From Dehalococcoidia bacterium (GTDB lineage Bacteria; Chloroflexota; Dehalococcoidia; Plut-88900), in assembly GCA_965197585.1 (NCBI GenBank), contig OZ240215.1:1696001-1760000 (forward strand): 64,000 bases of DNA. Direction: 5' to 3'. Positions 32,167-51,794 of this stretch are shown piece by piece (within the stretch, counting starts at the first letter, position 1; the number at the start of each line of letters is the position of its first letter). Position numbers and translations under genes: made by a program. The notes under the pieces are model-generated. The model worked only from the letters and a program-made list of their open reading frames with translations. It did no database searches and was not told the origin of the DNA.

Positions 32167-32196
32167 TTGACCCAAGCAAAACACTTGTACTATATT
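32167..32196 (+). promoter_or_regulatory. Sigma70-like promoter with overlapping LexA-like box (locus 1)
   Basis: TTGACC-N18-TATATT; AAAAC-actt-GTACT at 32178-32191. Confidence 0.6.
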
Positions 32197-32202
32197 CACT
32201 CC

Positions 32203-32800
32203 CGACCGGCCAGTCACCCACCCTAAACCCAAGGAGGAACCATAACCCAGGGGGAAACCCAGCCCCGTCCCACATAGCAGAAGACTCAACGTCCAAGCCC
32301 ATCCCAACGGCCCACGCGCCGCCCCACGGCTCAAGCGAAAGCCGCCATCTCCTCACCCCACGGGTCCCCTGTACCCTTCCCTGGTCCCTAGGCGATGGAA
32401 GGCCCATCGACTCTAAGCAGCATGTAGGCTTGCGAGACCGGCCTACTCGACGCACCTCTCACCCGGCGCGTTCGAGTCAACGCTATGCGCATAGCCCGCG
32501 AATATACGGGGCCCTCCAATGCAGGGCCCGCCAGGGGCCTTCGTGCCCCCGGCTCTGACTCCACCGTCGTTCCCTTCGGAGATTCCCACCCCCCAGCGGC
32601 GGAAGTTGAGTCGTACTCCCATCCCTCCGAGATGGTCGAGTAGCGTCTTGCGGACGAGACACCCCGCCTCTCTCGTCCGCCTCAGTAAAGACACGTGGGG
32701 TAATCGCAGGCTGGCCTCCCGCCCCTGCCCAAGAGTCCCGGACCTTCCGTCGCCTTCCCCCTCCAAAAAACAAACAACGAACCCAAACCCCACAACCGAA
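32203..32800 (+). ncRNA. Candidate large structured ncRNA, copy 1
   Basis: Paralogous to ~50991-51667; long-range helix 32391-32402/32743-32754; many internal hairpins; no credible ORF; ends approximate. Confidence 0.6.
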
Positions 32801-32845
32801 TACCCCCACCGATACGGCCCTATCCTGCTGGACAAGCGCACCGCG

Positions 32846-32875
32846 TTGACTACCCCACCCCCCACCCCCTAAAAT
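32846..32875 (+). promoter_or_regulatory. Putative promoter of the TPR gene
   Basis: TTGACT-N18-TAAAAT, 12 nt before ATG 32888; no SD, so possibly a near-leaderless transcript. Confidence 0.45.
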
Positions 32876-32887
32876 TTATCTAAGCCC

Positions 32888-34336
32888 ATGCAAGACAGAT
32901 ACGATCTCCCAATCACCACGAATTCAGCCAAGGCCGCCGACCTTTTCGTCGAGGGCATGGACCTCCTCCTTTCCATGAACGTCGGCTCCTTGGAGCGCAT
33001 TAGGGAGGCCGTCGAAGCTGACGACTCCTTCGCCACGGCCTACGCCACCCTCGCCTACCGCTACATGGTCGAAGGCAAGGTTAAGGAAGCACGAGAGAAC
33101 ATCTTACACGCCGAGTACCGCGCCTCCGGCCTCACCCGCCGAGAGCGCCTCTACGTCGCTGTAATCGATGCCTATGTCCACAGTTCCGGCCCCCGAGCCC
33201 TCAGCCTGATGAAAGAGTATCTCTGGGAGTTCCCCAGGGACATACTCATACTCTACATAGCCAACAACCTGCTCTTCTATGGATGCAGCGGTGGAGGCTC
33301 CAAGAGTTATCCGGCAGACCAGCTCGCCCTTTGTACTGAGGTGGCCCCTCACTATGGCGATGACTGGGCATTCCAGAGCCGCTATTCCTTCGCCCACCAC
33401 GAATCAGGCATTCTCGACGAGGCTCTGCGCCTCGCCGAGGCCTCTCTCAAGACCCGTCCCGACAACGCCGACGCTTCCCATTCCGTCGCTCACGTCCTAT
33501 TCGAAAGAGGCGCCTCCCCGGACGGAGCTCAATTCCTGGAAGAATGGACCAGGGACTACGACCGCCGAGCTCCCTTTTACGTCCACCTGGCCTGGCATTA
33601 CTGCCTCTTCGAGCTCTCCCAAGGCCATTACAACAAGGTCTTGGACCTCTACAACAGCCGTATTCAGCCTGCCGTTGCCGCAGGGGACGGCGGCGCCCTC
33701 GCCGACGCCGCAGCTCTCGTGTGGAGAATGATGCTCTACTCGGACACAGTGCCTCAGATCGACTGGAAGGCACTCTGTTCCCTCGCCGAGCCCTCCATCA
33801 GCACCGAGGGTACAGCCTATCGGGACGTCCACGCTGCCCTGGCATTCGCCGGAGCTAACGATTGGGAGAAAATGACCGCTCTCCTTGACCGCTTCCAGGC
33901 CCGAGCCTCTTCCGGTGACACCCTCGCCTCCGAGATTATGGTCCCTCTTATGAAGGGCCTCCAGCTCTTCGCCCACGAACGTCCTCAGGAAGCCTTGAAG
34001 TTGTTGGAGCCTCTATTTGGTCCTTCAGTAATGGACCAGCTTGCCCGCGTTGGTGGGAGCCACGCCCAGAGGGAAGTGCTTGAGGACACCCTCGTTGCCT
34101 GTTTCCTCGAAACGGAACAGTTCGACAAGGCCAAGTCGATGCTCTGCACCCGCCTCTCTCGCCGCCCCTCCCCCCGGGACCTCTTCTGGCTGGCCCGCGC
34201 GAAGACCGGTCTCGGCGACTCAGATGCCGCCCAGCGCGACCTTACACAAGCCAACCTCGAATGGACCAGCTCCAACCACGACCCCGACTCCCCGGAGTTC
34301 GCCCGTCTCCGTGCTTCTGTAGCAAACCCCCGCTAG
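32888..34336 (+). CDS. Tetratricopeptide repeat protein (TTC38-like)
   Basis: ASHSVAHV, HLAWHYCLFEL, ARVGGSHAQREVLEDT motifs. Confidence 0.82.
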   Translation: MQDRYDLPITTNSAKAADLFVEGMDLLLSMNVGSLERIREAVEADDSFATAYATLAYRYMVEGKVKEARENILHAEYRASGLTRRERLYVAVIDAYVHSSGPRALSLMKEYLWEFPRDILILYIANNLLFYGCSGGGSKSYPADQLALCTEVAPHYGDDWAFQSRYSFAHHESGILDEALRLAEASLKTRPDNADASHSVAHVLFERGASPDGAQFLEEWTRDYDRRAPFYVHLAWHYCLFELSQGHYNKVLDLYNSRIQPAVAAGDGGALADAAALVWRMMLYSDTVPQIDWKALCSLAEPSISTEGTAYRDVHAALAFAGANDWEKMTALLDRFQARASSGDTLASEIMVPLMKGLQLFAHERPQEALKLLEPLFGPSVMDQLARVGGSHAQREVLEDTLVACFLETEQFDKAKSMLCTRLSRRPSPRDLFWLARAKTGLGDSDAAQRDLTQANLEWTSSNHDPDSPEFARLRASVANPR

Positions 34337-35580
34337 GGCACCCTCTCCCCTGCCCTGAACACCCCCACAACATTCCCCAACACCTTCAGGTCCTGGGTCG
34401 GGTCGCCATCCACCAGCAGCAGGTCCGCCTCCTTGCCGGGTTCAACAGTTCCTATCTCACCCCCAAGCCCTAACGCCAGTGCCGCATCCCTGGTCCCCGA
34501 TAGAAATGCCTGCTCCGTCGGCATCCCCACGTCCACCATGGAATCTAGCTCTCTGTGGAACTGTCCGAACGGGTACGCCCCCCACCCGCAGTCCGACCCC
34601 CCGATCAACCGCGCTCCCACCGAGACCAGTTCCCGGAACACCTCTCCCCTCTGCCGGATTGTCTCCTCGTTCTCCTCCAGTTCCATCCTCTCCTCAACCG
34701 AGATCGTACCCTCGTCCCGTTTCGCCTCAAGTGCTAACGTCGCCGCCCGACGTATGTGAATAGTCGGGTTTATCCACACCCCGGACTCAGCAATCCTCTC
34801 CCCTACCCTCGGGTCCCACCTGCTCACCCCATCTTCGTCCATGAAGTTGCAGTGGATGATCATGTCGACCCCGGCGTCCAGGCAATACACAACCGCCTGC
34901 GTGGAGATAGCATGTCCCGCCACCAGTTTCCCCCGAAGATGCGCTTCCTCCACAACCGCCCGAAGCTCTTCTACCGTGTACGACGCCCGTTCAGGCATGC
35001 TTCCTCGAGTCGTACCTCCGCTCGTCATCACTTTGATGAAGCTCGCCCCATTCTTGATCATCCGACGCACTGCCGCCCTGACCCCATCCACGCCATCAGC
35101 CTCGGCCCCCATCATCCAGCAGTGACCGCCGGTCATGGTAACCGGGTTCCCGCACGCCACAATCCTCGGCCCCGGAACTATGTCCCGCCGTATCCCTTCC
35201 ATCAGCGAGAATACGACCTTGTTCCAACCTCCGTTGTCCCTCATCGTCGTCACACCGCTCTCCAGGGCCATACGTGCGCTCTTCACTGCTTCCATCAGGT
35301 GAATGTCATCCCCGTCTTCATGCACTTCATCGACCGAAAGGCCCGTGCCCGGCATATTCGTGTGCGTATGGCAGTCGATCAATCCCGGCATCAGTGTCGC
35401 CCCGGGGAAGTCCAAAGCTGTCCCTTCGATATCCCCGCACTGAGACAGCTCCGACTGTCGGGCCACCCACTCAATCCCTCCCCCCGACACCTTAACCGCC
35501 ATCCTCTCCTGCACCACGCCACTCAACCCATCCGCCAGCCTACCCACCTTGATAATCGTCGGCTCACTGTTTATGTTCAT
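34333..35580 (-). CDS. Metal-dependent amidohydrolase (prolidase-like subgroup)
   Basis: TLMPGLIDCHTH, FIKVMTSGG, GSDCG, IGTVEPGKEADLLLVDGDP. Confidence 0.9.
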   Translation of the reverse strand: MNINSEPTIIKVGRLADGLSGVVQERMAVKVSGGGIEWVARQSELSQCGDIEGTALDFPGATLMPGLIDCHTHTNMPGTGLSVDEVHEDGDDIHLMEAVKSARMALESGVTTMRDNGGWNKVVFSLMEGIRRDIVPGPRIVACGNPVTMTGGHCWMMGAEADGVDGVRAAVRRMIKNGASFIKVMTSGGTTRGSMPERASYTVEELRAVVEEAHLRGKLVAGHAISTQAVVYCLDAGVDMIIHCNFMDEDGVSRWDPRVGERIAESGVWINPTIHIRRAATLALEAKRDEGTISVEERMELEENEETIRQRGEVFRELVSVGARLIGGSDCGWGAYPFGQFHRELDSMVDVGMPTEQAFLSGTRDAALALGLGGEIGTVEPGKEADLLLVDGDPTQDLKVLGNVVGVFRAGERVP

Positions 35581-35680
35581 TGCTTCCCCTTTCTAAAACT
35601 CTCCCATCTCCCTCCATGATACCCTTCAGCGCCTCTCCCGCACGGACTTGCTGGAAGGGCTCTATCGCCTCCTCCTCGAT

Positions 35681-35834
35681 AAGACCTTTGCATAACCTGC
35701 GCTGGAGGGGACGGGGCCGCTCGTGCTGTCGTAGATCCGCCAAGGCGGGAGGCTCTCGAAGTATGAGCGGGGGGAGGGATGTAGAGTGATCTGGATCGCA
35801 CCATAGGCGTTATCTGCAGTTACGCAAAGGTCCC
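35681..35834. mobile_element. ~150-bp MITE-like element (copy 2)
   Basis: AAGACCTTTGCATAA...TTACGCAAAGGTCCC; co-linear with 17548-17700. Confidence 0.7.
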
Positions 35835-35871
35835 TTGACGGGAGAAGGCAAGAGTGAGAGTGCACCCATCC

Positions 35872-37101
35872 TCAAGGCAACTTCCGAACCCTCGGCAAAA
35901 CTATCCCCGACAAAAAATTCGCGACCGCCAGTATGCCCCCGTTTATCAACAGGGCCCGCGGCGCCCCCAACACCCCCGCCAGTGCCCCGACCTCCAGATG
36001 CCCTGACGGCGCAGTCCCTATCGCCAGCACCCAAGACCCCATCGCCCGGCCCCGATGCTCGTTGGGCACGTTCTGCTGCATCAGCGTCTTGTAAAGCGTA
36101 TCCGCCGCAGTCGCACACGCATTCACCACTGCTATCACAAACAGGTAGAAGATGAAGTTCTCATACAACGAAAATGCCGCAAGCCCAAGCCCGAATCCCC
36201 CCGCCGACAGGAACGCATACAACCCCTTCCTCCCGGAATTCCTCAACCTCGCCAAGCTCAACAACCCCGCCAGCCCTCCGACCTGACTGGTAGCCGCCAT
36301 TATCCCCAGCCCCACCTCCCCGACGCCAAGCACGTCCTTTGCAAAAACCGGTAGCACGCTCTGATGCGTGAAGCCAAAAATCTCCGTAACCGCCGCAAGG
36401 TACATCAGGGTGAGCAGCACCCTGTTTTGGCGTATGAGCCTCATCCAGCCCATCAGGTTCTCGAACACAGGCCGCGGATGCACCACAGCCGACTGTCCCA
36501 CCTCCCGGGTCCCCATCAGCACCCCCAACCCCACTATGTACGTCGCCGCTATCAGCACGTACAACCCCGCGATGCCCAACTCGTGAATCACGAATCCCGA
36601 GCCCAACGACCCAATCAGCGCCCCAATCCGGTGGCTCGAAGACATCAGCGCCAATCCATTCAGGCTTCTATCCGGCCCCACAATGTCGTATGCATACGCT
36701 TGGCTCATCGTCCCGAAGAACGCCTTCAGGCTACCCGCCACCCCCGCCAACAGGATTATCGGCCATACCCTGTCCAGATCGTTGAACATCAGCACTGCCA
36801 TGATCACTGCCACCGCGCTGCCTCCGGCGTAGACGAACCGCAGAAACACCCTCCGGTTCACCCTGTCCGCCACCGACCCCGACACTATCCCCAGAAAGAA
36901 AAATGGTGCCATCCCCGCCGCAAACGCCACCCCGATCAGGAATGGAGAATTAGTCATTTCGAAGACCAGCCACCCCAGCGCCACCATCTCCATGCCCCAG
37001 CTCAGCGCGTGGAATACTCCCCCACCCCAGAGGAAACGAAAGTCCCGGTAGGCAAAAGATGCCCATACGCCTCTTGGCGCTGCGAAAGCTGTCTGAGCCA
37101 T
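35872..37101 (-). CDS. MFS transporter
   Basis: YRDFRFLW, GSVADRVNRR motif A, many hydrophobic segments, PNEHRGRAMG. Confidence 0.9.
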   Translation of the reverse strand: MAQTAFAAPRGVWASFAYRDFRFLWGGGVFHALSWGMEMVALGWLVFEMTNSPFLIGVAFAAGMAPFFFLGIVSGSVADRVNRRVFLRFVYAGGSAVAVIMAVLMFNDLDRVWPIILLAGVAGSLKAFFGTMSQAYAYDIVGPDRSLNGLALMSSSHRIGALIGSLGSGFVIHELGIAGLYVLIAATYIVGLGVLMGTREVGQSAVVHPRPVFENLMGWMRLIRQNRVLLTLMYLAAVTEIFGFTHQSVLPVFAKDVLGVGEVGLGIMAATSQVGGLAGLLSLARLRNSGRKGLYAFLSAGGFGLGLAAFSLYENFIFYLFVIAVVNACATAADTLYKTLMQQNVPNEHRGRAMGSWVLAIGTAPSGHLEVGALAGVLGAPRALLINGGILAVANFLSGIVLPRVRKLP

Positions 37102-37158
37102 ATCAGTAAGTCCGCCTGCGACTCCCGGAGCCCAGGGAAGGAGAGTCGAGAACGAGAC

Positions 37159-39552
37159 TTATTCCGGCACGCCCACCAGGCCCGCCTTCAACATTGCCTC
37201 GATCTCTTCCGAAGAGTAACCCATCTCACCCAACAGCTCCACCGTGTGTTCACCTATCAATGCCGACGGTGGGTTGTCCACAGTCCCCGTCTCCGAAAAG
37301 TGCACCAGAACCCCCGGCTGCTTCAGCCCCGTGTAAACCGGATGATCACCCTCATAAACCATCCCTGTCTCGATGGCATGAGCGTTCTCGTAAAACCCCT
37401 CCATGTTCCCTTGCGCCACCTTCACACACGGCACCCCCTTCTCCACAAGCCGAGCCTCCCACTCCCGCGCCGTCCCTTTCGCGAAAACGGCCGCGATAAC
37501 CTCGCACAGTTCCTCGTTCCACGGGTCCATTACGGACGCCTCCTCAAATGTCAAATCCGGCTCATCCCACCCTCCACCCAAAGCCCCCTTCAGCCGATCC
37601 CACTCCTTCTCCTGCACGCAAGACAGGAACACCCACCCCTCCGCAGTCTCGTACATCCGATACAGCGCCGACATCCCGTGAACTCCCGCATCCGCCAACG
37701 CCCGAGCCTTCTTACCCTCGTATCGCATGAAGTCGTCCGATGTGGCGAGCGCCCCGGTCTTCATCAGACTCAAGTCGATCTTCTGCCCATTCCCCGTCCT
37801 GTCCCGATGATTCAACGCCATGAGCACGGCGACTGCCAGCATCAACGCATTCGTGTCGTCGCAGATCGCCGTCCGCAGAAAGATCGGCCCCCCCGACCTC
37901 CCTCCGTTCCAAGCCGTCAGCCCCGACATCGACTGAAACAGCGGATCGAATCCCGGCTTCTTAGCCTCAGGGCCCGACGGCCCGTACGCAGTGCTGTGCA
38001 CGTAGATGATATCCGGGCGAATGGCCCGCGCCGATTCATAATCGATACCCAACCGCTCCGCCACCCCGACCCTCATGTTGTGTACCAGCACGTCGCTTCG
38101 TTTAATCAGCCTTCTGATCACCTCCCGAGACTCGGGCGCCTTCAGGTCAAGTGCCAGATCCCTCTTCCCACGATTCGACCCGAGAATCAGCATGGGAATG
38201 CTGTGCGCCCCTTCTCCTTGGAGCGGCTCCACCTTTACGACGTCCGCCCCTAGGTCGCACAAAGCCATTGGCCCCAGCGGCCCCGCAATGTACGCTGAGA
38301 AATCCAGCACCCTCAGCCCCTGCAACGGCGTCCGTCCTTGGATCGAGTCGTGGCCGTCCAGACCTCCTTCATCCTCGCGTTCAGGAAATAGCCCCTCCGG
38401 CAATGACGAGCTATTTGCCTCAGCCCTATCCACCGGCGCAGGCCCGCGCACCTTCCCCGGAGTCTCCGAGAAAATTATCGGGTGTCCCACCTGCTTCATG
38501 TCGCCCAGCACCGGGTCATTCACATCCACTACCAGCCCGTTATGGTGCACCTGGGGCACGTCCATATACTCCTGCGTGGTCAATACCGGCGCCATTGGCA
38601 CGTCCCCCGCCTCCAGCACCTTCAGCCACTCCGCCCGAGGCCGCTCCCTCAACCTCCTCCCGATAATCTCAATCGCGGCGAGTCTAAACTCGTCCTCCGG
38701 CCAGCCTGTGGGGGCCGTATCAAATCGAGTGTCGACAACCAGTTCGGGAAGGTCCAGCGCGATGGCCAGCTTGTCCCAGAACCACTTCGTCAGACAGCCA
38801 ATGTGTATCCACTTGTCGTCGGCGCACGGGTACATCCGGTACGCCGGCATTCCGCCGTGGGGATGGATGTTGTTCACGATGAAGGGGGGCAACTCGTTGG
38901 ATATGGGCAGCACTGGGTACCGGATAGCTATCGCCCCCTCGTACATGCTCGTCCACACCCGCTGCCCGACCCCCGTCTCATTGCGAATGTGCAGCGCCGC
39001 CAATATCCCCTGTAACGCAAGCATCACGGTTCCCAGGCTTGCTACCGGTGACGACACGTACACCGGCCCCGGCCTTACCCCCGCCTGCTCCGTCATTATC
39101 CCTGATGCCGCCGCCGCTATCCCCTCATATCCCGGCAGGTTCTTTAGAGGCCCCTTCTCCCCGAAAGACGAGATCGAGCAGTAAATCACACCCGGGTTCC
39201 GCTCCCGCACCGCCTCATATCCAATCCCAATCCCATCCGCCACCCCCGACCTCCAGCTCTCCAGCACAACGTCCGCCCGAGACGCCAACACCAGCGCCTC
39301 CCCCACCCCCGACCTCAAATCAAGTCCTACGCTCCTCTTCCCCCTGTTCCACACCCGAAACCCGGGCTCCGCCTCCAATGGTTCGCCGCCCGGCCCCACC
39401 ACCTTGACTACGTCCGCCCCGTAGTCGGCAAGGAGCATCGTGGTCAGCGCCCCCGGATACCCCCGCGAAAAATCAACCACCCGCAACCCGACCACCGGCC
39501 CCGAGCAACCTTCGCTATACGTCCCTGCCAAAACTTCTATCCGACCTCCCAA
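37159..39552 (-). CDS. Double-domain CaiB/BaiF CoA-transferase
   Basis: Two LRV(V/L)DFS...GADVVKV...NRGKR units in one ORF; start uncertain. Confidence 0.88.
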   Translation of the reverse strand: MGGRIEVLAGTYSEGCSGPVVGLRVVDFSRGYPGALTTMLLADYGADVVKVVGPGGEPLEAEPGFRVWNRGKRSVGLDLRSGVGEALVLASRADVVLESWRSGVADGIGIGYEAVRERNPGVIYCSISSFGEKGPLKNLPGYEGIAAAASGIMTEQAGVRPGPVYVSSPVASLGTVMLALQGILAALHIRNETGVGQRVWTSMYEGAIAIRYPVLPISNELPPFIVNNIHPHGGMPAYRMYPCADDKWIHIGCLTKWFWDKLAIALDLPELVVDTRFDTAPTGWPEDEFRLAAIEIIGRRLRERPRAEWLKVLEAGDVPMAPVLTTQEYMDVPQVHHNGLVVDVNDPVLGDMKQVGHPIIFSETPGKVRGPAPVDRAEANSSSLPEGLFPEREDEGGLDGHDSIQGRTPLQGLRVLDFSAYIAGPLGPMALCDLGADVVKVEPLQGEGAHSIPMLILGSNRGKRDLALDLKAPESREVIRRLIKRSDVLVHNMRVGVAERLGIDYESARAIRPDIIYVHSTAYGPSGPEAKKPGFDPLFQSMSGLTAWNGGRSGGPIFLRTAICDDTNALMLAVAVLMALNHRDRTGNGQKIDLSLMKTGALATSDDFMRYEGKKARALADAGVHGMSALYRMYETAEGWVFLSCVQEKEWDRLKGALGGGWDEPDLTFEEASVMDPWNEELCEVIAAVFAKGTAREWEARLVEKGVPCVKVAQGNMEGFYENAHAIETGMVYEGDHPVYTGLKQPGVLVHFSETGTVDNPPSALIGEHTVELLGEMGYSSEEIEAMLKAGLVGVPE

Positions 39553-39792
39553 TCTCTAAGCGGCCCCTTCTGAAATCCGTCCTCCCGTCTCATCTCCCCT
39601 ATGCCCTTTCTTATGTCATTTCGAGGCACGTTTGCTGTGTCATCCAGAGGCGTTTTATTACTGCCATTCCGAGGCTCCGCGAGGAATCTAAGGCGTCAAT
39701 CCCACAAATCCACCCCCTTCACCACCACCCACCCCTAACCATAGACATCCCCCACCCAACACTCTCCCAAACCCCATGAGGACCCCTCCCCC

Positions 39793-41001: not shown

Positions 41002-41339
41002 AGGCCCAACTCCCTAAATCTCCGTCTAGCCTTCCGTCCCGAAAGCCCCACCCCTCCCCACCTTAGCCGCAGATTATACCAGCAGCCCCCACTACTCCCT
41101 CCCTGCCCAAAACGAAGTCCTTTGCTCCCCGCCCAGACTCCAACACTGTCACTCCGAGGCTTTTTTACTGTCATTCCGAGGCCCCGCGAGGAATCTAACG
41201 CGCTTGCAGAGTCCGAGCCTAAATCTCTGCACTACTCCATAGTTACGGCGATAATTACCAACCACAAACCATCCGCCAACTTGACAAAGACCACTTGCAC
41301 CCGTGACCATTGCCCCCACCCACACCGCCTGACAAACCC

Positions 41340-41744: not shown

Positions 41745-41919
41745 CCCGCCCCCTCCCTTCCGCCATAACATGTGTGGGTCGTATCCCGGCCCACCCCGTT
41801 TGCGACCTGTCATCCCGAGGCCCCGCGAGGGATCTAGGACTTGCCCCACCACGCTGTCTTCCCAGCCCCTTCTCCCTCCCCCGTAGGGGCTATTCGTGAA
41901 TCGCCCTCCCGCCCACCAG

Positions 41920-42714: not shown

Positions 42715-42762
42715 GGTTGCCCCTCCTTCTTCTGATCAGCGCGCGCGTTGCATCTACTGGCT

Positions 42763-43932: not shown

Positions 43933-43938
43933 AGGCTT

Positions 43939-44889
43939 TCAACCGGCGCGGGTATACGGATCGCTACACTGTATTGTCTGGGAGGCAAGCCCGCAAGATA
44001 TAGGGCAGCTATCCGACAGGTGGAAGACTCCTTTCTTGAGAGGGGGCTTTAGTCCGAGGGCGAGGTGTGGGCGGTGGTAGTGATACCGATCCAGGAACTG
44101 CTCTACTAATCTCCGGCACTGGGGAAGGTCCTGGGCGCTGTAGCGGGTCCAGCCCAGACATTCTTTCCGCACTGTCCGGTTGAAGCTCTCGATGTAGGCC
44201 TGCTCGTTCTTCTTGTAGGGCCGAGCCACCCGGTGTCGTTGGCAGTAGGCCAACACCCGCTCTGCAAAGGCCTCTTTGAACTCACTGCCCCCGTCCGTTT
44301 GGATCAACTCCACCCTGCCATCGAAGCGCCGTGTCATCGCTTGTTCCAGGAAGGCACAGCCGTAAGCGGCGGTCAGGGAGGGGGCTAACAGGATGTCTGC
44401 CTCCCTGGTGTATATGTCGATGCCGGTGAAGGCAAACAGGCCTCCAAACATCACCGTGTCCATCTGTACCACCTGGCGAGGGCTGCTGGCCGTGGGCACC
44501 GGCCCTCTACGCCGATTCTTCTTCCACTTGGAACGGATAATGTACTTCTCCTTCAGGATCTCATATATCTTAGGCACTGACAGGCGTACCTCGTGTTCCC
44601 ACTCCAGGAAGTAGGCGATCTTCTGTCCACAGCACCCCGCCTCCCGCTCCCTAATGGCCCAAATCCATCGCTTCACCATCGGGTCGACCCGCCTCCCTAA
44701 CCTGGGCCCCTTCTTGGCTTGCTCGTATCGACCAAGGAAGGGCAGCAGCCCCTGTTCTTGGATGCCCCGAACCCACAGATGGATCGTCTCCCGGTGTTTA
44801 CCCAGCTGCCGCGCTATCTGCGCTTTTGTCATCCCTTGCTCGTACAACTCCCAGGCCAACGTTATCAGTGTGAGATTTGACATGTCCAT
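43939..44889 (-). CDS. Integrase-core (IS481/IS3-like) transposase
   Basis: N-terminal HTH; QMDT, IQTDGGSEF, EQAYIESFNRT, YHYHRPHLAL. Confidence 0.9.
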   Translation of the reverse strand: MDMSNLTLITLAWELYEQGMTKAQIARQLGKHRETIHLWVRGIQEQGLLPFLGRYEQAKKGPRLGRRVDPMVKRWIWAIREREAGCCGQKIAYFLEWEHEVRLSVPKIYEILKEKYIIRSKWKKNRRRGPVPTASSPRQVVQMDTVMFGGLFAFTGIDIYTREADILLAPSLTAAYGCAFLEQAMTRRFDGRVELIQTDGGSEFKEAFAERVLAYCQRHRVARPYKKNEQAYIESFNRTVRKECLGWTRYSAQDLPQCRRLVEQFLDRYHYHRPHLALGLKPPLKKGVFHLSDSCPISCGLASQTIQCSDPYTRAG

Positions 44890-44924
44890 GAGCTTACATG
44901 GACTGTCGGATTTCTACGGAAACA
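43998..44924 (-). mobile_element. Insertion sequence with one degenerate end
   Basis: Upstream end TGTTTCCGTAGAAATCCGACAG (minus strand, from 44924); inverted core ATCCGACAG at 44011-44019; boundaries approximate. Confidence 0.6.
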
Positions 44925-44934
44925 TCGCGGGGGA

Positions 44935-44963
44935 TTGACCGGCGTAACCTTCGCATGTAATAT
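44935..44963 (+). promoter_or_regulatory. Putative promoter of the FAH gene
   Basis: TTGACC-N17-TAATAT. Confidence 0.45.
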
Positions 44964-45043
44964 TCGTCTGCCCTTGCAGGCGCCCGAGCATTCCCAACAC
45001 CAGTCTCCGGGCGTCAATCAACAAACCCTCTGGAGTTGTAGCA

Positions 45044-45799
45044 ATGAAATTTGCGAGATATGAAGTGGGAGGCCGTACCACCTACGGCGTAGTTGGGAAT
45101 GGAACTGTCACCGACATTGATGGAGACATCTATGGCGATGTGAAAAAGACTTCTGTTCAGCACAATCTCCAGGATGTGAAGCTCCTTGTACCGTGCGAGC
45201 CCACCAAGGTCTTGGCCGTCGGCAATAACTATGCCAGCCACCTCGGCGGGGACAAGAGGCCAGAGGTCCCCGGCATCTTCTTTAAGACTCTCACCTCCCT
45301 CCTGGACCCCGAGGGCACAATTATCCTCCCCCGTGACGCGGGTCTCGTGGAGCACGAAGGCGAGTTGGTGATTGTGATAAACCGCAGGGCTAAGTCCGTC
45401 TCCAAGGAAAATGCGCTGGACTACATTCTCGGATATACCGCAGGTAACGACGTAAGCTGCAGGCCCTGGCAGCGCGACGACCTCCAGTGGTGGCGGGCCA
45501 AGGGCTCCGACACCTTCGGCCCTCTGGGGCCGTTCATCAACACTGAAGTAGACCCCTTCAACACCAACTTTGCCGTCCGCATTAACGGTGAGACAGCCCA
45601 GGAAGGCAACACCTCCGACCTCATATTCGACATCCCGACAATTGTTAGTTTCATCACTGTCTCGATGACCCTTGAGCCCGGCGACGTGATCTACACCGGC
45701 ACCCCCGGTATCGCTGGCTCTACGAAAGATGGGGATACGGTGGAAGTAGAGGTGGAGGGTGTCGGGGTGCTCCGCAACTTCGTGGCCGACGAGGGCTAA
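45044..45799 (+). CDS. Fumarylacetoacetate hydrolase family protein
   Basis: KVLAVGNNY, EHEGEL, GYTAGNDVS, KGSDTFGPLGP, GDVIYTGTP. Confidence 0.92.
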   Translation: MKFARYEVGGRTTYGVVGNGTVTDIDGDIYGDVKKTSVQHNLQDVKLLVPCEPTKVLAVGNNYASHLGGDKRPEVPGIFFKTLTSLLDPEGTIILPRDAGLVEHEGELVIVINRRAKSVSKENALDYILGYTAGNDVSCRPWQRDDLQWWRAKGSDTFGPLGPFINTEVDPFNTNFAVRINGETAQEGNTSDLIFDIPTIVSFITVSMTLEPGDVIYTGTPGIAGSTKDGDTVEVEVEGVGVLRNFVADEG

Positions 45800-45828
45800 A
45801 AGAGAGCCCCGGGGCAAGAGGCTCGGCC

Positions 45829-46986
45829 ATGATCATCGACTGCTATCCTAGCTCCTTCGCCCAATGGGATTCCGCTGCAGGTTACAAGTCCCGCGCCGAG
45901 AAGATGGAGGTCATCCATCGGGAGTTGGCTACCCATCACCAGCCCGCATGGCGCGCCCGAGACCGCGCTGGCGTCGACAACAGCTCGCTCATCAACCCCG
46001 ACACCGGCGAACTCACCAACGCCGAGTGGACCCGCCATATGGGTCAGCTTGCTTGGGCATACGAGGGCGAGACCTACGTTAAGCAGTACTTCCCGCCGAT
46101 GCTCCACAACATGGAGTGCCCTCCCGAGCTCATGATCGCCGAGATGGACTACGCAGGCATCGACGCCGGTATCCTCCATACCCACCCACACAAGGGCAGG
46201 TACACCTTCCAGAACGAGTTTCAGCGTAACGTCGTCAACCGCTACCCTGACCGACTGATGCGCCTGGTGATGGTAGAGGCCCACTCCATTCCCTCTGACC
46301 CCGAGAAGGCAGCTGAGGAAGTAGCGTGGGAGGTTTCAAACTCTAAGAGTCGCTCCGGGTTGCAGTTCATGCCTCGCTACTACTACAGCCCGCCCCTGAC
46401 AGGCCAGCAGGGCCATCGAGACCCGTGGGACGATGGAGCCATGCGGCCCTTCTGGGACGGGGTGGCCAGGCTGGGAGTCCCCGTTTTCTTCACCATGATC
46501 GGCAAGGGCCTCTCAGGCCCGAGCCCCTACGGCCAGGCCCTACTCGAAGAGTATATGGACGAACTTCGAGTGCTAACCCGATGGATGGAGCGCTACCCGG
46601 AGGTCAAGGTCGTCATAACCCACGGCCTCCCGTGGCGAGCTTTCCAGGACGGCGACCGCATCGTCTTCCCAGACGAGATTTGGTCGGTCTTCGAAAACCC
46701 TCTGTGCAACATGGAGCTTATGTTAACTATCCAGATGGGAGCCATCTGGGAGTACCCGTGGAAAGAAGCCGAGCCAACCATAGAGGAATGCGTCAAGAGA
46801 ATCGGCGCTCACAGGCTCATGTGGGGCTCAGACTGGCCTATGGTCGGCCGTTACTGCACCTACAAACAGTCCCTGAACCAGTACCGCAAACACTGCGACT
46901 TCCTCTCAGACTCTGAGAGAGCCGACATCCTAGGCGGCACCGCCGCCCGCGTCATGGGCATCGAATACCCTTACCCCGGGCGGTGA
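45829..46986 (+). CDS. Amidohydrolase_2 family protein
   Basis: VVITHG, LMWGSDWP, ILGGTAARV. Confidence 0.8.
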   Translation: MIIDCYPSSFAQWDSAAGYKSRAEKMEVIHRELATHHQPAWRARDRAGVDNSSLINPDTGELTNAEWTRHMGQLAWAYEGETYVKQYFPPMLHNMECPPELMIAEMDYAGIDAGILHTHPHKGRYTFQNEFQRNVVNRYPDRLMRLVMVEAHSIPSDPEKAAEEVAWEVSNSKSRSGLQFMPRYYYSPPLTGQQGHRDPWDDGAMRPFWDGVARLGVPVFFTMIGKGLSGPSPYGQALLEEYMDELRVLTRWMERYPEVKVVITHGLPWRAFQDGDRIVFPDEIWSVFENPLCNMELMLTIQMGAIWEYPWKEAEPTIEECVKRIGAHRLMWGSDWPMVGRYCTYKQSLNQYRKHCDFLSDSERADILGGTAARVMGIEYPYPGR

Positions 46987-47101
46987 GGGGTGCTCCAGTC
47001 CCCTCTCCCTCAATGGGTCGAAGATGCGCCGAGGCGTAAGAGAGCTAGGGTGAGGGTGATTCCTGTTCCGGGTGGAGTGGTCCAGTCCCCTTTCCCTCAA
47101 T

Positions 47102-47234
47102 AAGACCTTTGCGTGGCCGATGTTGGCGGGGTCGGGGCCGCTCGTGCTGAGGCTCTCGAAGTATGAGCGGGGAGGTGGAGCTCACATCATCTGGACAGTA
47201 CAACAGACGCAATCTGTAGTTGCACACAGGCCTC
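47102..47234. mobile_element. MITE-like element (copy 3, degenerate)
   Basis: AAGACCTTTGCGTGG...TTGCACACAGGCCTC; same internal organisation as copies 1 and 2. Confidence 0.55.
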
Positions 47235-47354
47235 TCGATGGGCCGTAGATGCGCCTCTGGCGTGATAGGGCTAGGGTCGAAGACTCGCCGAGGAGAGTGA
47301 GGGTGAATTGAGTCTATAAGAAATAGACATCTAAAGTGTCGACTCGCTGAAAGC

Positions 47355-48158
47355 TCAGGGGAGCGACAGTACCTCACCCATCCACTCCGCCAAATCCCCT
47401 TCTTCCAAAACCCTAATCCCCAACCCCCGAGCCCTCTCCACCTGCTTCTCCGTCGTGTACCCATACGCGGCGAGATAGCAATTCACCCCCAGCCCCTGCG
47501 CCGACTCCAAATGCGCCACCTGGTCGTCCACAAAGTGGATATCGGCATACGAAACGTTGGCTGCCTCAGTAACCAGCCACATATGCACGTTCTTGTCCGG
47601 TGACGCCCCGACCATGTCCTTCCCAAGAACATGCCCGTCCGGCAGAGTGAAGCCGTTGTGCTCCAGGATTCCCTTGGAAACGGTACTGGGCTTGGAGGTC
47701 GTAACGAAGACATTCCCCAAATCGCCCTGACGCTCACTAAGAGCTTGGATCATGCCCGGATACAGGGGGTTGCGGTCCATCCACCCGGCCTCATCCCGCC
47801 CCCGAAAGCCCGCCCGATACCGCTGAAACGCAGCTTCCAGTTCTGGCCCCGACTCCACGCCAAAGAGACCAAGCAGGTCCGAAAACCGAGCCTCCAACGC
47901 ATCATCGAAGTCCTTCTGGTCGGACATGGGCACCCCTAGATCGAGCAAGTACAGGATCATTAGGTAATCTCGACCGTCCCTGATTAAGGGCCTCATCCGG
48001 TAGAATCCGTCCTTGAAGTAGTCGGTAACAGGAGATGCTAGCGGATCGAATTCTTCACCCTTGGCTTCAAGGAAAGCGCCATAGGCGGACACAACGCACT
48101 CGGCGGCGCTGTCACATATCACACCGTCAAAATCTAAAGCAATGACGTTGGAGTTCAT
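47355..48158 (-). CDS. HAD-superfamily hydrolase
   Basis: ALDFDGVICDS motif I; TTSK; FVDD. Confidence 0.88.
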   Translation of the reverse strand: MNSNVIALDFDGVICDSAAECVVSAYGAFLEAKGEEFDPLASPVTDYFKDGFYRMRPLIRDGRDYLMILYLLDLGVPMSDQKDFDDALEARFSDLLGLFGVESGPELEAAFQRYRAGFRGRDEAGWMDRNPLYPGMIQALSERQGDLGNVFVTTSKPSTVSKGILEHNGFTLPDGHVLGKDMVGASPDKNVHMWLVTEAANVSYADIHFVDDQVAHLESAQGLGVNCYLAAYGYTTEKQVERARGLGIRVLEEGDLAEWMGEVLSLP

Positions 48159-48221
48159 TATTTACACCTGCATGGGAAAGCCTTCTTGCCCTTGAAATGA
48201 ATTGGGGCTAGAAGGCTTCGG

Positions 48222-48250
48222 TTGACTGAGATGGCATCGACTATTATCAT
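48222..48250 (+). promoter_or_regulatory. Putative tatA promoter
   Basis: TTGACT-N17-TATCAT. Confidence 0.55.
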
Positions 48251-48286
48251 TGAGTCTACACTACTCACCTTGAGGGGGACAAAAAC

Positions 48287-48529
48287 ATGCCCTTAGGCGG
48301 CTTCATTGGGGGCCCGGGTATAGGCCTACCCGAGATACTGGTAGTCCTGGTAATAATCGTCATCATCTTCGGCGTGGGTAAACTCCCCGAGATCGGCGGA
48401 GCGTTGGGCAAAGGCATTCGGGAGTTCAAGAAGTCCTCCACCGAGGTAGACAAGGTGATCCAGGACGTCAAGGAACCCCTTAAGGCCGAGGTTCCTAAGG
48501 CTGAGCGGAAGCCCCACATCCCCGAGTAG
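48287..48529 (+). CDS. tatA: Twin-arginine translocase TatA
   Basis: GLPEILVVLVIIVIIFGVGKLPEIGGALGKGIREFKK. Confidence 0.93.
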   Translation: MPLGGFIGGPGIGLPEILVVLVIIVIIFGVGKLPEIGGALGKGIREFKKSSTEVDKVIQDVKEPLKAEVPKAERKPHIPE

Positions 48530-48562
48530 TCTCCCTCCCGTACTCGTCCGTACCAGGCATCC

Positions 48563-49654
48563 TCAGATTGCCTGAGCGCGCGCCCGGATCGCCTCCACGT
48601 CCACCCCCACCTCCGAGGCTATCTCCAGCACCTGCTCCCAGTGCTCCTCCCGCACCGGCACCCCCTCCCGAGACCTGCGCTCATATTCCTCTTGGGCGCG
48701 CTCGCCGGGCAATACGATCTTCTCGAACCCCGATGCCAGGTTGGAGCCTTTCACATTCCTGATCATCTCGTCGACTTTTGCCTTGAAGTCATCAAGCGGT
48801 TGCAGGTTTCCAACGTTCAAGGCCATTAAGAAGAAGCCGCCGGTCCAAGGTTCATCGGGAGTGGGAAGGGATGGAATGGGCTTGGCTGTCGTCCCTCCGG
48901 ACGCAATGCCTGCTAGCACGTCAACGAAGATAAGCCACCCCATCCCTTTTGGCCCGAGCGGCAAAATTGCACCCAGTTGCTCCGAGCCCCGCTTTGATGG
49001 ATCGACAATTAGAGGCACGGGATCGCCCGTGCGTACTCCGTCAGGCCCGACAAGCGGATCGTCCGGTATCGACTCCTTGTCCCTCGCAGAAAGCACCACG
49101 TGACCGTGCGAAACCGAGCTCATCGCCCCGTCGAAGATGATGGGCCTCTCTGTACCTGCCGGTATTACAAAGGCTAAAGGGTTGGTATTGAACACTGGGT
49201 CCCGACCTCCCCACCCCGCCACCAAAGGCACCCCGTTGCTCATCGCCAACCCTATGAAATCGTGATCCAGTGCCCTCATCGCATACGCCGAAGCCATCGT
49301 GAAGTCGTTGGTGTTGCGCACCCACACGATTCCGACTGTAGACTCCCGAGCCTTTTGAATAGCCAGGTCCATACCCCTGGTAGCTACTATCTGACCCGGA
49401 CCGCCATTCCCATCTAACAGCGCATAAGATGGCCCCTCGCTGACCGTCTCCGTTGGTGTTCCAAATCGCACGGCCCCACTGCGAATCCAAGGGTAAACAA
49501 GATCGATACACGCAATGCCTTGGGTGTCCTTCCCGTGCAGGTCGCCCTGAACAAAGGGCTCAGCAAAGAGATCGGCTTCCTCCTCAGACGCCCCCAAGGC
49601 ACGCGCCAAGCCCCGATACACCTCACGAAGAAATCCCGCTCTCTCGATTCTCAA
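48563..49654 (-). CDS. Ldh_2 family oxidoreductase (malate/L-lactate/sulfolactate dehydrogenase-like)
   Basis: LDGNGGPGQ, FNTNPLAF, LPLGPKG, LPGE; TTG start after GGAG. Confidence 0.85.
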   Translation of the reverse strand: MRIERAGFLREVYRGLARALGASEEEADLFAEPFVQGDLHGKDTQGIACIDLVYPWIRSGAVRFGTPTETVSEGPSYALLDGNGGPGQIVATRGMDLAIQKARESTVGIVWVRNTNDFTMASAYAMRALDHDFIGLAMSNGVPLVAGWGGRDPVFNTNPLAFVIPAGTERPIIFDGAMSSVSHGHVVLSARDKESIPDDPLVGPDGVRTGDPVPLIVDPSKRGSEQLGAILPLGPKGMGWLIFVDVLAGIASGGTTAKPIPSLPTPDEPWTGGFFLMALNVGNLQPLDDFKAKVDEMIRNVKGSNLASGFEKIVLPGERAQEEYERRSREGVPVREEHWEQVLEIASEVGVDVEAIRARAQAI

Positions 49655-49712
49655 GCTATCTCCGGATTCCTGTCTAACCTCGGCCCAAGAGCACAAGAAA
49701 TGGTAGGCTTAT

Positions 49713-49751
49713 CCCCTCTCCCTCGATGGGAGAGGGCTAGGGTGAGGGTGA
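49713..49751 (+). repeat. Repeat family E (CCCCTCTCCC-N-GGGAGAGGG..AGGGTGAGGG), uninterrupted copy
   Basis: Interrupted copies at ~17532, 29134, 47000 and 47086. Confidence 0.7.
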
Positions 49752-49803
49752 TCCTAGTTTTGCCTGAACAGTTGCGTAAAGGGCACTACATCGCGGCCCC
49801 ACC

Positions 49804-50553
49804 TCACTGCTCCAACTCGAGCATCCGCTTCTCAGCAGCCTTAATTCTGCGCCGATTAGCGAGCTTTGAAAGCCATATCCCTATCTCGTAAAGCACGATG
49901 ATTGGGCTGGCGAGAAGCGTCTGGTTAAAAGGGTCGAACGTGGGTGTAAAGATGGCTGCCGCTATAAACGCACCGACAATCGCCAGCTTCCTCCTCTTGG
50001 CAAAACTGCCTGGCTTCACAACCCCCAGCCTGGACAACAGGGTCATGACCAGAGGCGTCTGGAACGAAAGCCCGACCCACAATGTGAGAGCGAGAATCAA
50101 GTTGATGTAGCGCCCGATTCTGATATTGGCCTCGGCTACATCCCCCCCGAAGTTTAGGAGAAAGTTGAGGGCGGGGGGAATTAGGATGAACCAGGCAAAC
50201 ACTACGCCCGCGGCAAAGGAGAGGATGATGCCGGGCACGGATACGAGCACATAGCGCTTCTCTCTGGGCGTGAGGCCCGGGGCTGCGAACATGATCATCT
50301 GGAAGAGGACTACGGGCATGGCCAGGATGAATCCACCAAGGAGCGCCACCTTGAAGTAGGTGGTTATGAATTCGGTGGGGTCGATATAGACCAGTGGGGT
50401 ATCGCCCGCGGGGCCCTTCAGGAATTCCAAAACGCGGAACGTAAACACGGCGGAAATGCCCGTGCCAACTAAAAGAGCCAGCAGGGACTTGATAAACCGG
50501 CTGCGCAGCTCGTTCAGATGCCCCAGTATGGAGATCTTGTCGGGCGCGCTCAT
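49804..50553 (-). CDS. tatC: Twin-arginine translocase TatC
   Basis: HLNELRSR, FAAPGLTPREKRY, AAIFTPTFDP, LYEIGIW. Confidence 0.95.
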   Translation of the reverse strand: MSAPDKISILGHLNELRSRFIKSLLALLVGTGISAVFTFRVLEFLKGPAGDTPLVYIDPTEFITTYFKVALLGGFILAMPVVLFQMIMFAAPGLTPREKRYVLVSVPGIILSFAAGVVFAWFILIPPALNFLLNFGGDVAEANIRIGRYINLILALTLWVGLSFQTPLVMTLLSRLGVVKPGSFAKRRKLAIVGAFIAAAIFTPTFDPFNQTLLASPIIVLYEIGIWLSKLANRRRIKAAEKRMLELEQ

Positions 50554-50843
50554 AGCTGGTGGGGGCCGGTGCGGTTTGGAGGAGGATCAACCTTGGTAGA
50601 AGGTGTCACGTCCTCTTCCCTATCCTCTGAATGGAAGCCGACCGGCTGGTCGGTCGTAACGGTAGTCTCGGCCTTTGACTCTTCCACAGCAGCCGAGGCA
50701 AGACCTTGCGCAGCGCGCTGAAACTCTTGGACCGCCCCGCGGAGGGACGTGACAAGTGAGATGAGTTTAGAAGGCCCGAAAAGCACCAAGGCTAGCGCCA
50801 GGATGACTAGGATTTCCAGGATTCCGACGTTTAGCGGGTTCAA
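50550..50843 (-). CDS. TatA/TatB family subunit (probably TatB)
   Basis: VGILEILVILALALVLFGPSKL; overlaps the tatC start. Confidence 0.82.
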   Translation of the reverse strand: MNPLNVGILEILVILALALVLFGPSKLISLVTSLRGAVQEFQRAAQGLASAAVEESKAETTVTTDQPVGFHSEDREEDVTPSTKVDPPPNRTGPHQL

Positions 50844-50954
50844 AACTGAGTATCGCCTAGTTTATCGGCCCATTTGACTGGTACCCTTGGGAGTATAGCA
50901 TGGTGTTAGATGTTCCCCCTGATCCCGTTCACATAGAGGAGTGACATTAACCTA

Positions 50955-50984
50955 TTGACAGGATAAGTACGGTTGTTCTATATT
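50955..50984 (+). promoter_or_regulatory. Sigma70-like promoter with overlapping LexA-like box (locus 2)
   Basis: TTGACA-N18-TATATT; AGTAC-ggtt-GTTCT at 50966-50979. Confidence 0.65.
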
Positions 50985-50990
50985 GGTGCC

Positions 50991-51667
50991 AGGTCTAGAC
51001 CACTACCCTCAACCACCTTAAGGAGGAACCAACACCCAGGGAAGCCCACCCGACCCACCCGAGGACTCAACGCCTCAGCCCATCCCAACGGCCCTCGCGC
51101 AGGCCCGCGGCTCAAGCGAAACGTCCCCCTACGGAGGACCGCCATCTCCTCATCCCCACCGGGTCCCGTGCACCCTTCCCTGACCCCCAGGCGATGGAAA
51201 GACGCCCTGGTTCGCTATCGTTCCATGTGAGGCTCCTAACGGAGATGCCGCTCCTTCAAGCGGAATAGCGGTCGGATAGGCCCGGCGCCGAGGCACTCTC
51301 GGTACCCCGTCCGCTTAATGAAGCCGGGAGCCGGTGGTCTACGCGCTCCGGGTCGCACCGGCAAACTTGGACACATTACGCCTGCAAGAGGCTCCACCCG
51401 GACGCTGGACGAGCCTCCTAGCCGCCCTATAGCGGTGCAGCCAACCCCCCGGAGTCAGGCTCGGACCTGCTGGCCCTGAAGGTCCCTGCCCATGTCCAGC
51501 GTATACAGGGCCACAGGCCGCAGCAGCGGCAAAAGCGGGCCGGGCACCCTTGCCTCAGGGCGTCGGAGCACCCGAGGCACAGGAACAGGGGCAGCGTCCA
51601 GCAAGCGTCTTCCATCGCCAACCCAAAACCCAACAGACAGAACGGAAACCGAAACCCCACAATCGAA
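50991..51667 (+). ncRNA. Candidate large structured ncRNA, copy 2
   Basis: Paralogous to 32203-32800; long-range helix 51190-51205/51605-51619; many hairpins; no credible ORF; ends approximate. Confidence 0.6.
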
Positions 51668-51794
51668 GATGGAACATCCGCCTTGGGTGGGTCCGCCTCT
51701 GGAGGACTGAAGAAAAGGCCAGTGTGTCACTAATCTATTGAACGAATACACCCCCTTTCCCCTCCTCCCCTAACCCTGTTAACATTCTCGGCGC

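Follow-up and report, generated by a model that had tools for sequence, protein, structure and literature searches.

Bacterial miniature inverted-repeat transposable elements (MITEs) and mobile insertion cassettes include the Correia elements of Neisseria, ERIC/IRU, bcr1 of the Bacillus cereus group and MIC231; MITEAba12 is reportedly a further MITE. Correia elements also bring promoters and RNase III sites. Large structured non-coding RNAs (ncRNAs) are represented in Rfam by families such as OLE, GOLLD, HEARO, ROOL and raiA, and among eukaryotic mobile elements the yeast retrotransposons Ty1 and Ty3 target RNA polymerase III genes. Here we describe two loci in a 64-kb stretch of DNA (hereafter the window; contig OZ240215.1, positions 1,696,001 to 1,760,000) from the 3.43-Mb genome of a Dehalococcoidia bacterium, termed G000, which was compared with eight other genomes of the same genus (G001~G008). 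In window positions, which are used throughout for these two copies, copy 1 spans 32153-32800 and has lost both transposon ends, whereas copy 2 spans 50920-51750 and is complete. We consider that both loci are probably members of one family of non-autonomous DNA transposons, either MITE-like or mobile-cassette-like, that carries a structured RNA.

A first-pass annotation of the window had described the two loci as sharing a promoter, a conserved 5' domain, a variable middle and a common tail, and all four features were recovered in both copies. The 5' domains (32231-32402 and 51020-51201) align with 76% identity (E 5.9e-32 in a genome search with copy 1 as the query), the middle regions could not be aligned to each other, and the tail AAACCCCACAA(C/T)CGAA was found at 32785-32800 and 51652-51667. 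The homology of what had been called two paralogous loci is thus real, but their number is not two. A first-look genome search with the 5' domain took in the best 41 of 78 candidates, and BLAST of the 5' domain against G000 gave 58 hits, of which 40 lie on the plus strand and 18 on the minus strand, at identities of 70.6-86%. Built from 71 sequences, a covariance model of this domain likewise found 58 copies in G000, and it was positive in all eight congeners with 23-64 copies each (G001 41, G002 54, G003 23, G004 64, G005 52, G006 41, G007 41 and G008 39). The same model gave no match in the family's three other genera. Of 151 Dehalococcoidia genomes sampled across the class, the six of this genus matched and none of the 145 others did. 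Moreover, an exact-motif scan of 185,579 species genomes returned at least 92 stretches, and among the matches listed all are in eight assemblies named "MAG: Dehalococcoidia bacterium". Among the genomes searched, the family is restricted to one Dehalococcoidia genus.

Comparison with Rfam 15 left standing the novelty that the first-pass annotation had supposed, as no family was matched. The window gave no match at the gathering score, a search of ten loci covering module types A-J returned tRNA as the sole match, and the E-value mode (E up to 10) over 31900-33000 gave a best score of 18.9 bits against a gathering score of 49.4.

In one congener (record OY764147.1; L041, L075, L088 and L097), at least four copies contain the conserved 5'-domain motif two times at a distance of 85-87 nt, and the hits of the covariance model and of the hidden Markov model are split accordingly. 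This doubling is a tandem duplication within the 5' domain that has spread inside that species.

Analysis of the copy 2 boundaries revealed the hallmarks of a transposon; unless a strand is given, the features described in the following lie on the plus strand. The element begins with a left terminal inverted repeat TGATCCCGTTCACATAGAGGAGTGACA (50920-50946) and ends with a right-end module (51668-51750) that contains small hairpins and the right inverted repeat TGTCACTAATCTATTGAACGAATACA at 51725-51750. It is flanked by an unstranded target-site duplication CCCCC at 50915-50919 and 51751-51755, the latter followed by TTTCCC and by TAACAT 9 nt before the ATG at 51795. At the orthologous locus, G003 and G006, among the genomes aligned there, lack exactly these 831 bp (50920-51750), with CCCCC flanking both sides. 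The terminal inverted repeats are imperfect, ~27 bp long and of the form TG...CA, with TGATCCCGTTCACATAGAGGGGTGACA at one end against the reverse complement of ...TGTCACTAATCTACCGAACGAGTACA at the other, and complete elements measure 734-885 bp. Among 26 copies with both ends in all genomes, the 5-bp duplication matches at five of five positions in 12, at four of five in eight and at one to three in six.

Filled and empty sites were also found at other loci. At an sdhA-like locus the element is present in G000, G002 and G005 and the site is empty in G001, G003, G004, G006, G007 and G008, and at an aminotransferase locus it is present in G000 and G002, reduced to a ~9-nt relic in G005 and absent from the other six genomes. 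The exact repeat pattern was counted 22 times in G000, 21 in G002, 14 in G005, five in G001, three in G003 and once in G008, and none was found in G004, G006 and G007. With inverted repeats, a duplication of fixed length, filled and empty sites and no internal transposase gene, the copies whose ends are intact are transposons. The MITE picture that the first-pass annotation had set against its own reading of an independently transcribed RNA, many scattered copies with target duplications, is therefore what was found for the copies with recognizable ends. The internal RNA features are better conserved than the transposon ends, and where no ends are recognizable, the copies carry short repeat modules of other kinds upstream.

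Extra left repeats in G000 are either solo or split by insertions. A solo left repeat ending ...GTGACATCACCCCCTTG (G000:C1:3404962-3405000) abuts the -35 box of the groES promoter, and past this promoter lies a CIRCE-like inverted repeat, TTAGCACTC-N9-GAGTGCTAA; this arrangement is possibly the relic of a deletion between the -35 box of an element and that of the host. At G000:C1:659345-660665, a different insertion sequence (IS) with its own inverted repeats and a 423-aa open reading frame (ORF) of the rve domain lies between the left repeat and the promoter of copy c660696, and in copy c936986 ~215 bp of another G-rich repeat occupy the corresponding place. Both are nested insertions next to GTGACA.

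The copies with ends sit in the orientation of the host promoter, and exactly 5 bp separate them from the host TTGAC -35 box downstream of them. Among 51 copies, positions 6-10 after the right end read T in 47, T in 45, G in 44, A in 36 and C in 34, and a TANNNT -10 box follows at a spacing of 16-19 nt in 21 of 25 G000 copies, in many cases as TATAAT, TAGAAT, TAATAT or TACAAT. At the sdhA-like locus, TTGACA-N17-TATAAT is present in nine of nine genomes, filled or empty, and in the three filled genomes the element stands immediately before the TTGACA. Exceptions exist, in that 15 of the 51 copies, copy 2 among them, lack TTG at the target position. We read the spacing as a choice of target, because base-exact spacing is beyond the reach of purifying selection alone. 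The orientation of the copies (40 plus, 18 minus) follows the host promoters, and an explanation by replication strand was set aside; the GC skew of the genome is irregular.

The genes downstream of the element are unrelated, encoding an MFS transporter, an SdhA-like protein, a luciferase-like monooxygenase, Lgt, peptide deformylase, amidohydrolases, amine oxidases, an aminotransferase, SulP, an Lpd-like protein, an aldehyde dehydrogenase and an amidase, in addition to tRNA genes. This variety rules out an obligatory 5' leader of one gene family. Pfam-supported genes on the same strand lie downstream of c671244, c889307 and c918813, and a crude ORF map places an opposite-strand ORF downstream of 18 of the 58 copies, some of these ORFs being spurious. 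Downstream of copy 1, the host promoter at 32846-32875 serves a gene for a TPR protein (32888-34336), with the -10 box 12 nt before the ATG.

At both downstream host genes the -10 boxes lie only 9-12 nt before the ATG (32875-32890 and 51780-51797), which suggests that their mRNAs are leaderless or nearly so. A Shine-Dalgarno (SD) core was seen upstream of about a quarter of crude gene starts in this genome. The G000 plus strand is 30.8% C and 28.4% G, with a strong but irregular strand asymmetry: over ~1.1-2.6 Mb most 50-kb bins have a GC skew of -0.10 to -0.21, apart from a few at about 2.0 Mb with values close to zero, and no simple two-arm pattern emerges.

Each element also carries a promoter of its own, as the first-pass annotation had it. 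The sigma-70-type promoter of copy 1, TTGACC-N18-TATATT (32167-32196), agrees with the consensus at 10 of 12 positions, and that of copy 2, TTGACA-N18-TATATT (50955-50984), at 11 of 12. Promoter scans of the two loci found three and two promoter-like sites, where shuffled sequences led us to expect 0.1 and 0.2. In the alignment of the 58 G000 copies, GTGACA(C/T), the inner part of the left repeat, is followed 7 nt later by a -35 box TTGAC/T in 57 copies, and a -10 box lies 17-19 nt past the -35 box in all 58. Copy 1 retains this inner part as GTGACAC at 32153-32159, and the outer left inverted repeat was not found there. At the transcript 5' end, as predicted from the -10 box rather than mapped, copy 1 has a near-palindrome GACCGGCCAGTC (32204-32215), a possible 5' hairpin, and copy 2 a perfect palindrome GGTCTAGACC (50992-51001). 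A perfect palindrome of at least 6 nt occurs at the predicted start in 44 of the 58 copies with differing sequences, such as GTTCGAAC, GGTCTAGACC and GACTAGCTAGTC.

Downstream of the palindrome lies the conserved 5' domain, which measures about 170 nt and is rich in C (42% C, 23% G). It opens with AAGGAGG (32231-32237 in copy 1, 51020-51026 in copy 2), which is invariant in 58 of 58 G000 copies and is the perfect complement of CCUCCUU at the 3' end of the 16S rRNA (...CACCUCCUUUCU). In copies 1 and 2 and throughout the 58-copy alignment, no ATG, GTG or TTG lies within reach of this motif. The domain tolerates indels of 8, 16 and 2 nt between copies 1 and 2 and of 1, 4, 8 and 16-24 nt across the 58 copies, and copies that are ~95% identical differ by many 1-nt indels. 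Owing to preceding indels of 1, 4 and 8 nt, the conserved block GAGGACTCAACG stands in different frames between copies. The frame-shifting indels, the missing start codon and the 1-nt indels between near-identical copies together show that the elements are non-coding, in agreement with the first-pass annotation, and no reading frame is conserved in the family. Long stop-free plus-strand frames do occur in several copies, and such frames are expected by chance since the strand is T-poor (15% T).

The extra hairpin that the first-pass annotation had seen in copy 2 was located at 51123-51139 as GTCCCCCTACGGAGGAC with a UACG loop, an optional insertion shared by a minority of copies. It belongs to a short hairpin unit (GTCCGCCTACGGAGGAC and its variants, which combine a G.A mismatch with a loop of UACG, UCUG or UCAG) that is found as this optional 5'-domain insertion and, once or twice, in the right-end module (51682-51709). 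The unit behaves as if it were a tiny repeat in its own right.

Further analysis of the interior was based on 141 distinct full-length copies, 58 from G000 and 83 from congener loci. The middle module, 330-450 nt long and structured, is enclosed by a closing helix formed between the last part of the 5' domain (GGCGAUGGAAG...) and the first part of the tail (...CUUCCAUCGCC). In copy 1, the strands GGCGATGGAAGGCCC (32391-32405) and GGACCTTCCGTCGCC (32740-32754) are partners and enclose a type B module (32406-32739), followed by an A/C-rich tail at 32755-32800 that ends in AAACCCCACAACCGAA and lacks a right-end module. In copy 2, GGCGATGGAAAGACGCCCTGG (51190-51210) pairs with CCAGCAAGCGTCTTCCATCGCC (51598-51619) around a type F module (51211-51597), with helices 1 and 2 forming 23 pairs at 99-100% of cells paired, and the A/C-rich tail (51620-51667) ends in AAACCCCACAATCGAA. 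The closing helix is present in 134 of the 141 copies, with positions 1-10 paired in 90-100%, and it extends to 15-20 bp with one bulged A in some copies. Its distal part differs by module type, as GACGC/GCGUC in one and GGUCC/GGACC in another, with more pairs beyond, and the distal duplex energy is -15.1 kcal/mol for cognate strands compared to -10.3 with partners from other sub-families.

The middles fall into clusters of 24, 24, 21, 19, 14, 14, 7, 4, 4, 3 and 2 copies plus five singletons, cluster B of copy 1 accounting for 24 of the 141 and cluster F of copy 2 having been folded as a consensus with its pairs counted. The middle is accordingly not a copy-specific variable domain, as had been proposed, but one of about six main types that recur across sub-families. 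The broader idea of a constant scaffold with a variable domain has fared better, since the clusters, the closing helix and the combinations of parts identify an exchangeable module. Leader, P3 (a hairpin of the 5' domain) and module types are found in many combinations. At the orthologous copy 2 locus, G005 has a type A module that is 97% identical to other A copies and G000 has type F, and the points at which modules switch coincide with the closing helix.

P3 occupies the segment between CAUCCCAA and GGCUCAAG (32308-32327 in copy 1, 51089-51108 in copy 2), and it became apparent only when each variant was folded separately. There are 65 distinct variants in 119 copies, and their stems are built from different sequences: GGCC/GGCC, GGCCC/GGGCC, GGGCGGC/GCCGCCC, GGGCAGC/GCUGCCC, GGUCGC/GCGACC and GAGCGGC/GCCGCUC. 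On the plus strand, copies 1 and 2 fold with z-scores of -4.35 and -2.29, none of 20 shuffles being as good in either case, compared to a z-score of +1.17 for the minus strand of copy 2, where 17 of 20 shuffles were as good. In the type F alignment of 11 sequences, 120 consensus pairs have 96.8% of their cells paired, against 36-42% with slid partners. In this alignment 11 cells are changed on both sides compared to 3.5 in shuffles, and the covariation score is 0.108 compared to 0.094; none of 500 shuffles reached either value. The predicted type F pairs contain 109 G.U cells and only 15 A.C cells, the latter being G.U on the other strand, and several hairpins have UACG or UCCG loops. Compensatory change on the plus strand is therefore seen in P3, the closing helix, the type F counts and the G.U excess. 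Beyond P3, the consensus fold of the whole 5' domain (145 sequences) is weak, its top column pairs by mutual information are mostly not Watson-Crick, and pairing-like local pairs appear only at columns 166-176 and 114/127. An RNA structure, as the first-pass annotation had predicted, is moderately supported by plus-strand folding beyond shuffles and by some covariation, with the plus strand as the structured one.

Evidence for expression comes from assembled contigs of RNA libraries. In metatranscriptome X18, the depths sum to 355 at 32288-32361 (a conserved block, to which other copies contribute as well), to 74-100 at 32362-32509 and to 26-32 at 32584-32731, compared to values of 0-34 for the upstream gene and of 0 for 32732-33600. 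Across the RNA libraries, the bins over the gene downstream of copy 1 show little or no cover. In the DNA run X1, cover extends to all 30 bins around copy 1. One RNA run that holds part of the element is labelled as a sponge metagenome. These depths hint that the element is transcribed. The earlier claim of an independently transcribed RNA is in line with a depth above that of the flanking genes, in contigs that carry neither strand nor ends.

Based on these features we propose, tentatively, that the family homes to sigma-70 promoters by reading either TTGAC or bound RNA polymerase, and that its cargo is an RNA expression platform composed of a promoter, a 5' hairpin, a decoy SD, a stalk and six or more interchangeable RNAs, each of which would be a new class of ncRNA; as a whole this proposal is possible rather than probable. 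The promoter would yield a stable plus-strand RNA of ~600-750 nt. RNase III-cut stalks are known to release ribosomal RNAs, and the closing helix might be processed alike to release the module, or might simply insulate it, although we hold either role with low confidence. Genes for RNase J and RNase III are present in G000. With moderate confidence, and by analogy, the 5' end may be guarded by the terminal hairpin together with the non-initiating SD in the manner of STAB-SD, in which a 30S subunit bound at a 5' SD blocks RNase J, as described for cry3A of Bacillus thuringiensis in section 3.2 of PMC4113751. The elements share the sequence signature of that system, a 16S-complementary SD near the predicted 5' end with no start codon after it. 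In addition, no hairpin followed by a T-run was found between the tail and the host promoter at either copy, in a scan that detects that terminator class only, a restriction that counts against the point. With no terminator-like site and with head-to-tail placement on a host promoter, the element would probably also alter downstream expression in cis, possibly by read-through into the host gene.

The mobilization itself would depend on an enzyme supplied in trans. We propose that the elements may be moved by a DDE transposase of the IS481-like kind, for example that of an IS located at 18357-19412 of the window. This IS is 1.06 kb long, has 20 copies of ~99% identity plus three of ~90%, and has TG...CA ends (TGTAAGTGTTAGGTAATTCGTTGACAGA...) with a 5-bp duplication ATTCC. 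Its transposase contains the domains rve and rve_3, and IS481 is the best of six models at 184.4 bits, which is below the curated cut-off of 224. Counted by eye, 18 of 28 positions agree between its repeat and the element's right repeat. As the autonomous partner this IS was rejected, for its repeats are others and it has no internal homology to the element. The IS inside c660696, which holds the sole transposase-domain ORF found within a copy, is a different rve element and was rejected as well, and none of the remaining transposases of G000, namely IS5-like (six copies), IS110 (four), IS30-like (three) and tyrosine integrases (five), could be linked to the element.

Every copy of the 20-copy IS that was examined lies within a GTCATTCC...GGAATGAC hairpin repeat, and it is a repeat-targeting IS. 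A unit of the same kind, with hairpin GTCATTCCTGCGGAGGCAGGAA, lies at 31918-32139, just upstream of copy 1; it is another high-copy repeat, with a summed DNA-contig depth of 1100-1800 compared to ~30-40 over the downstream gene.

Several observations weigh against the reading of both loci as promoter-homing transposons with an RNA cargo. The left repeat is recognizable in only 15 of the 58 G000 copies and the right-end module in 25, and copy 1 has neither; as only a minority of copies have ends, mobility is for most of them inferred from homology. No autonomous element with the same repeats was found in the nine genomes, where repeat pairs of the exact pattern all lie ~710-850 bp apart, and the link to the IS481-like IS consists of the 18 of 28 repeat positions and the equal duplication length, with no internal homology. 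The target of copy 2 is a poor -35 box (TTTCCC), and another promoter-like site lies upstream of this element at 50874-50901. As for the structure, only five of the 120 type F pairs are changed on both sides compared to 2.6 in shuffles, of which 20 of 500 reach five, and a type A alignment (16 sequences, 118 pairs) has two such pairs; RNAalifold assigns only small covariation terms (-1.97 and -0.95), the pairs were counted on the very sequences, related to one another, that had yielded the structures, and the 5' domain outside P3 shows mostly block linkage rather than base-pair covariation. The RNA contigs carry neither strand nor ends, and DNA carry-over is possible. The zero depth over the gene downstream of copy 1 speaks against strong read-through there, although zero cover by contigs is not evidence that read-through is absent.

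Among the alternatives, the one that survives best is a family of host ncRNA genes acting in trans, as a scaffold that binds ribosomes, proteins or RNAs, for which mobility is incidental or past and the repeats explain the spread. It would account well for the promoter, AAGGAGG and helix blocks that stay intact in copies without transposon ends and are better kept than the repeats, for module types that are conserved across nine species, and for an RNA-library depth above that of neighboring genes; the lack of a common function among the downstream genes also makes a common role in cis less obvious. We nevertheless regard it as rather unlikely. Conservation between copies can be explained by gene conversion, as in the module swap, or by recent spread, the strict head-to-tail placement on promoters is not needed for an RNA acting in trans, and no target, partner protein or trans effect is known.

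Less likely still is a purely selfish MITE whose promoter, SD and folded interior are ancestral IS leftovers or neutral filler with no RNA function. The inverted repeats, duplications, empty sites and high copy number suit it, a promoter and a perfect ribosome-binding site without an ORF would be the expected remains of a transposase gene deleted internally, and covariation within module types is thin. It would have to explain, however, why AAGGAGG is kept in all 58 copies when their identity is otherwise 70-86%, why P3 stems are rebuilt from different sequences, why G.U outnumbers A.C by 109 to 15 in the predicted pairs, and why the strands of the closing helix co-vary between module types; there is also no homology to the IS elements present. 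Finally, a protein-coding family, for a small proline-rich protein or a precursor like those of ribosomally synthesized and post-translationally modified peptides, could invoke the perfect SD ~25-30 nt from the predicted start and the long stop-free frames, but even with a non-canonical start after AAGGAGG it is hardly credible, being already contradicted by the missing ATG, GTG or TTG, by GAGGACTCAACG standing in different frames after indels of 1, 4 and 8 nt, by the 1-nt indels between near-identical copies, and by the chance expectation of open frames at 15% T.

Returning to the favored reading, a transposon family that carries a structured RNA, its cargo would be uncatalogued large structured RNAs with consensus promoters at 23-64 loci per genome, and ~40 kb per genome is left blank or filled with spurious ORFs by automated annotation. 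If homing and the expression platform both hold true, the elements would rewire host promoters genome-wide while supplying abundant RNAs. The family is relevant to the ways in which mobile DNA rewires gene expression in symbionts restricted to a host. Should the target rule hold, it would be a natural case of a bacterial transposon aimed at promoters to the exact base pair and in one orientation, a "safe-haven" strategy as in yeast. The case also advises caution, as a seeming two-copy ncRNA turned out to be a repeat family under whole-genome search. Keyword searches of open-access text returned no description of the element or of -35-directed MITEs, which does not establish absence from print. 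The nearest item in these texts is reportedly an IS110 element with an attached small RNA gene, ISPpu9/Ssr9 (PMC12288879), which is a different system.

Compared to the known systems, the element is a non-autonomous DNA transposon by its defining features, with an autonomous partner as the one feature missing. It resembles bacterial MITEs in its inverted repeats, duplication of fixed length, lack of a transposase gene, dozens of copies and filled and empty sites, and also in that the elements fold and are probably transcribed. It differs from them in its larger size (734-885 bp), in a complete consensus promoter that would drive a long modular RNA of its own, in RNA features that are better conserved than the ends, and in insertion 5 bp upstream of a -35 box in fixed orientation, for which a limited keyword search found no counterpart. 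With IS481 it shares TG...CA termini, a 5-bp duplication, very specific targets and the 18 of 28 right-repeat positions, but it has neither a transposase gene nor internal homology, and its target is N5-TTGAC. Similar to OLE, GOLLD, HEARO, ROOL and raiA, it is several hundred nucleotides long, hairpin-rich, non-coding and of narrow taxonomic range, whereas its family is multi-copy, mobile, modular and without an Rfam match. The likeness to STAB-SD, as far as the cited section describes that system, lies in a non-initiating SD, close to the 5' end and complementary to the 3' end of the 16S rRNA, together with a gene for RNase J; the host here is a member of the Dehalococcoidia rather than a Firmicute, the RNA downstream is non-coding, and stabilization is proposed by analogy. 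Like Ty1 and Ty3, the element inserts at a fixed short distance upstream of a landmark of the transcription machinery and so avoids gene disruption, although it is a bacterial DNA transposon of another enzyme class and its target could simply be the TTGAC sequence. What is unusual among all of these is the base-exact, oriented insertion before -35 boxes, and a modular large RNA, predicted to be promoter-driven and absent from Rfam, whose features are kept better than the ends of the transposon that carries it.

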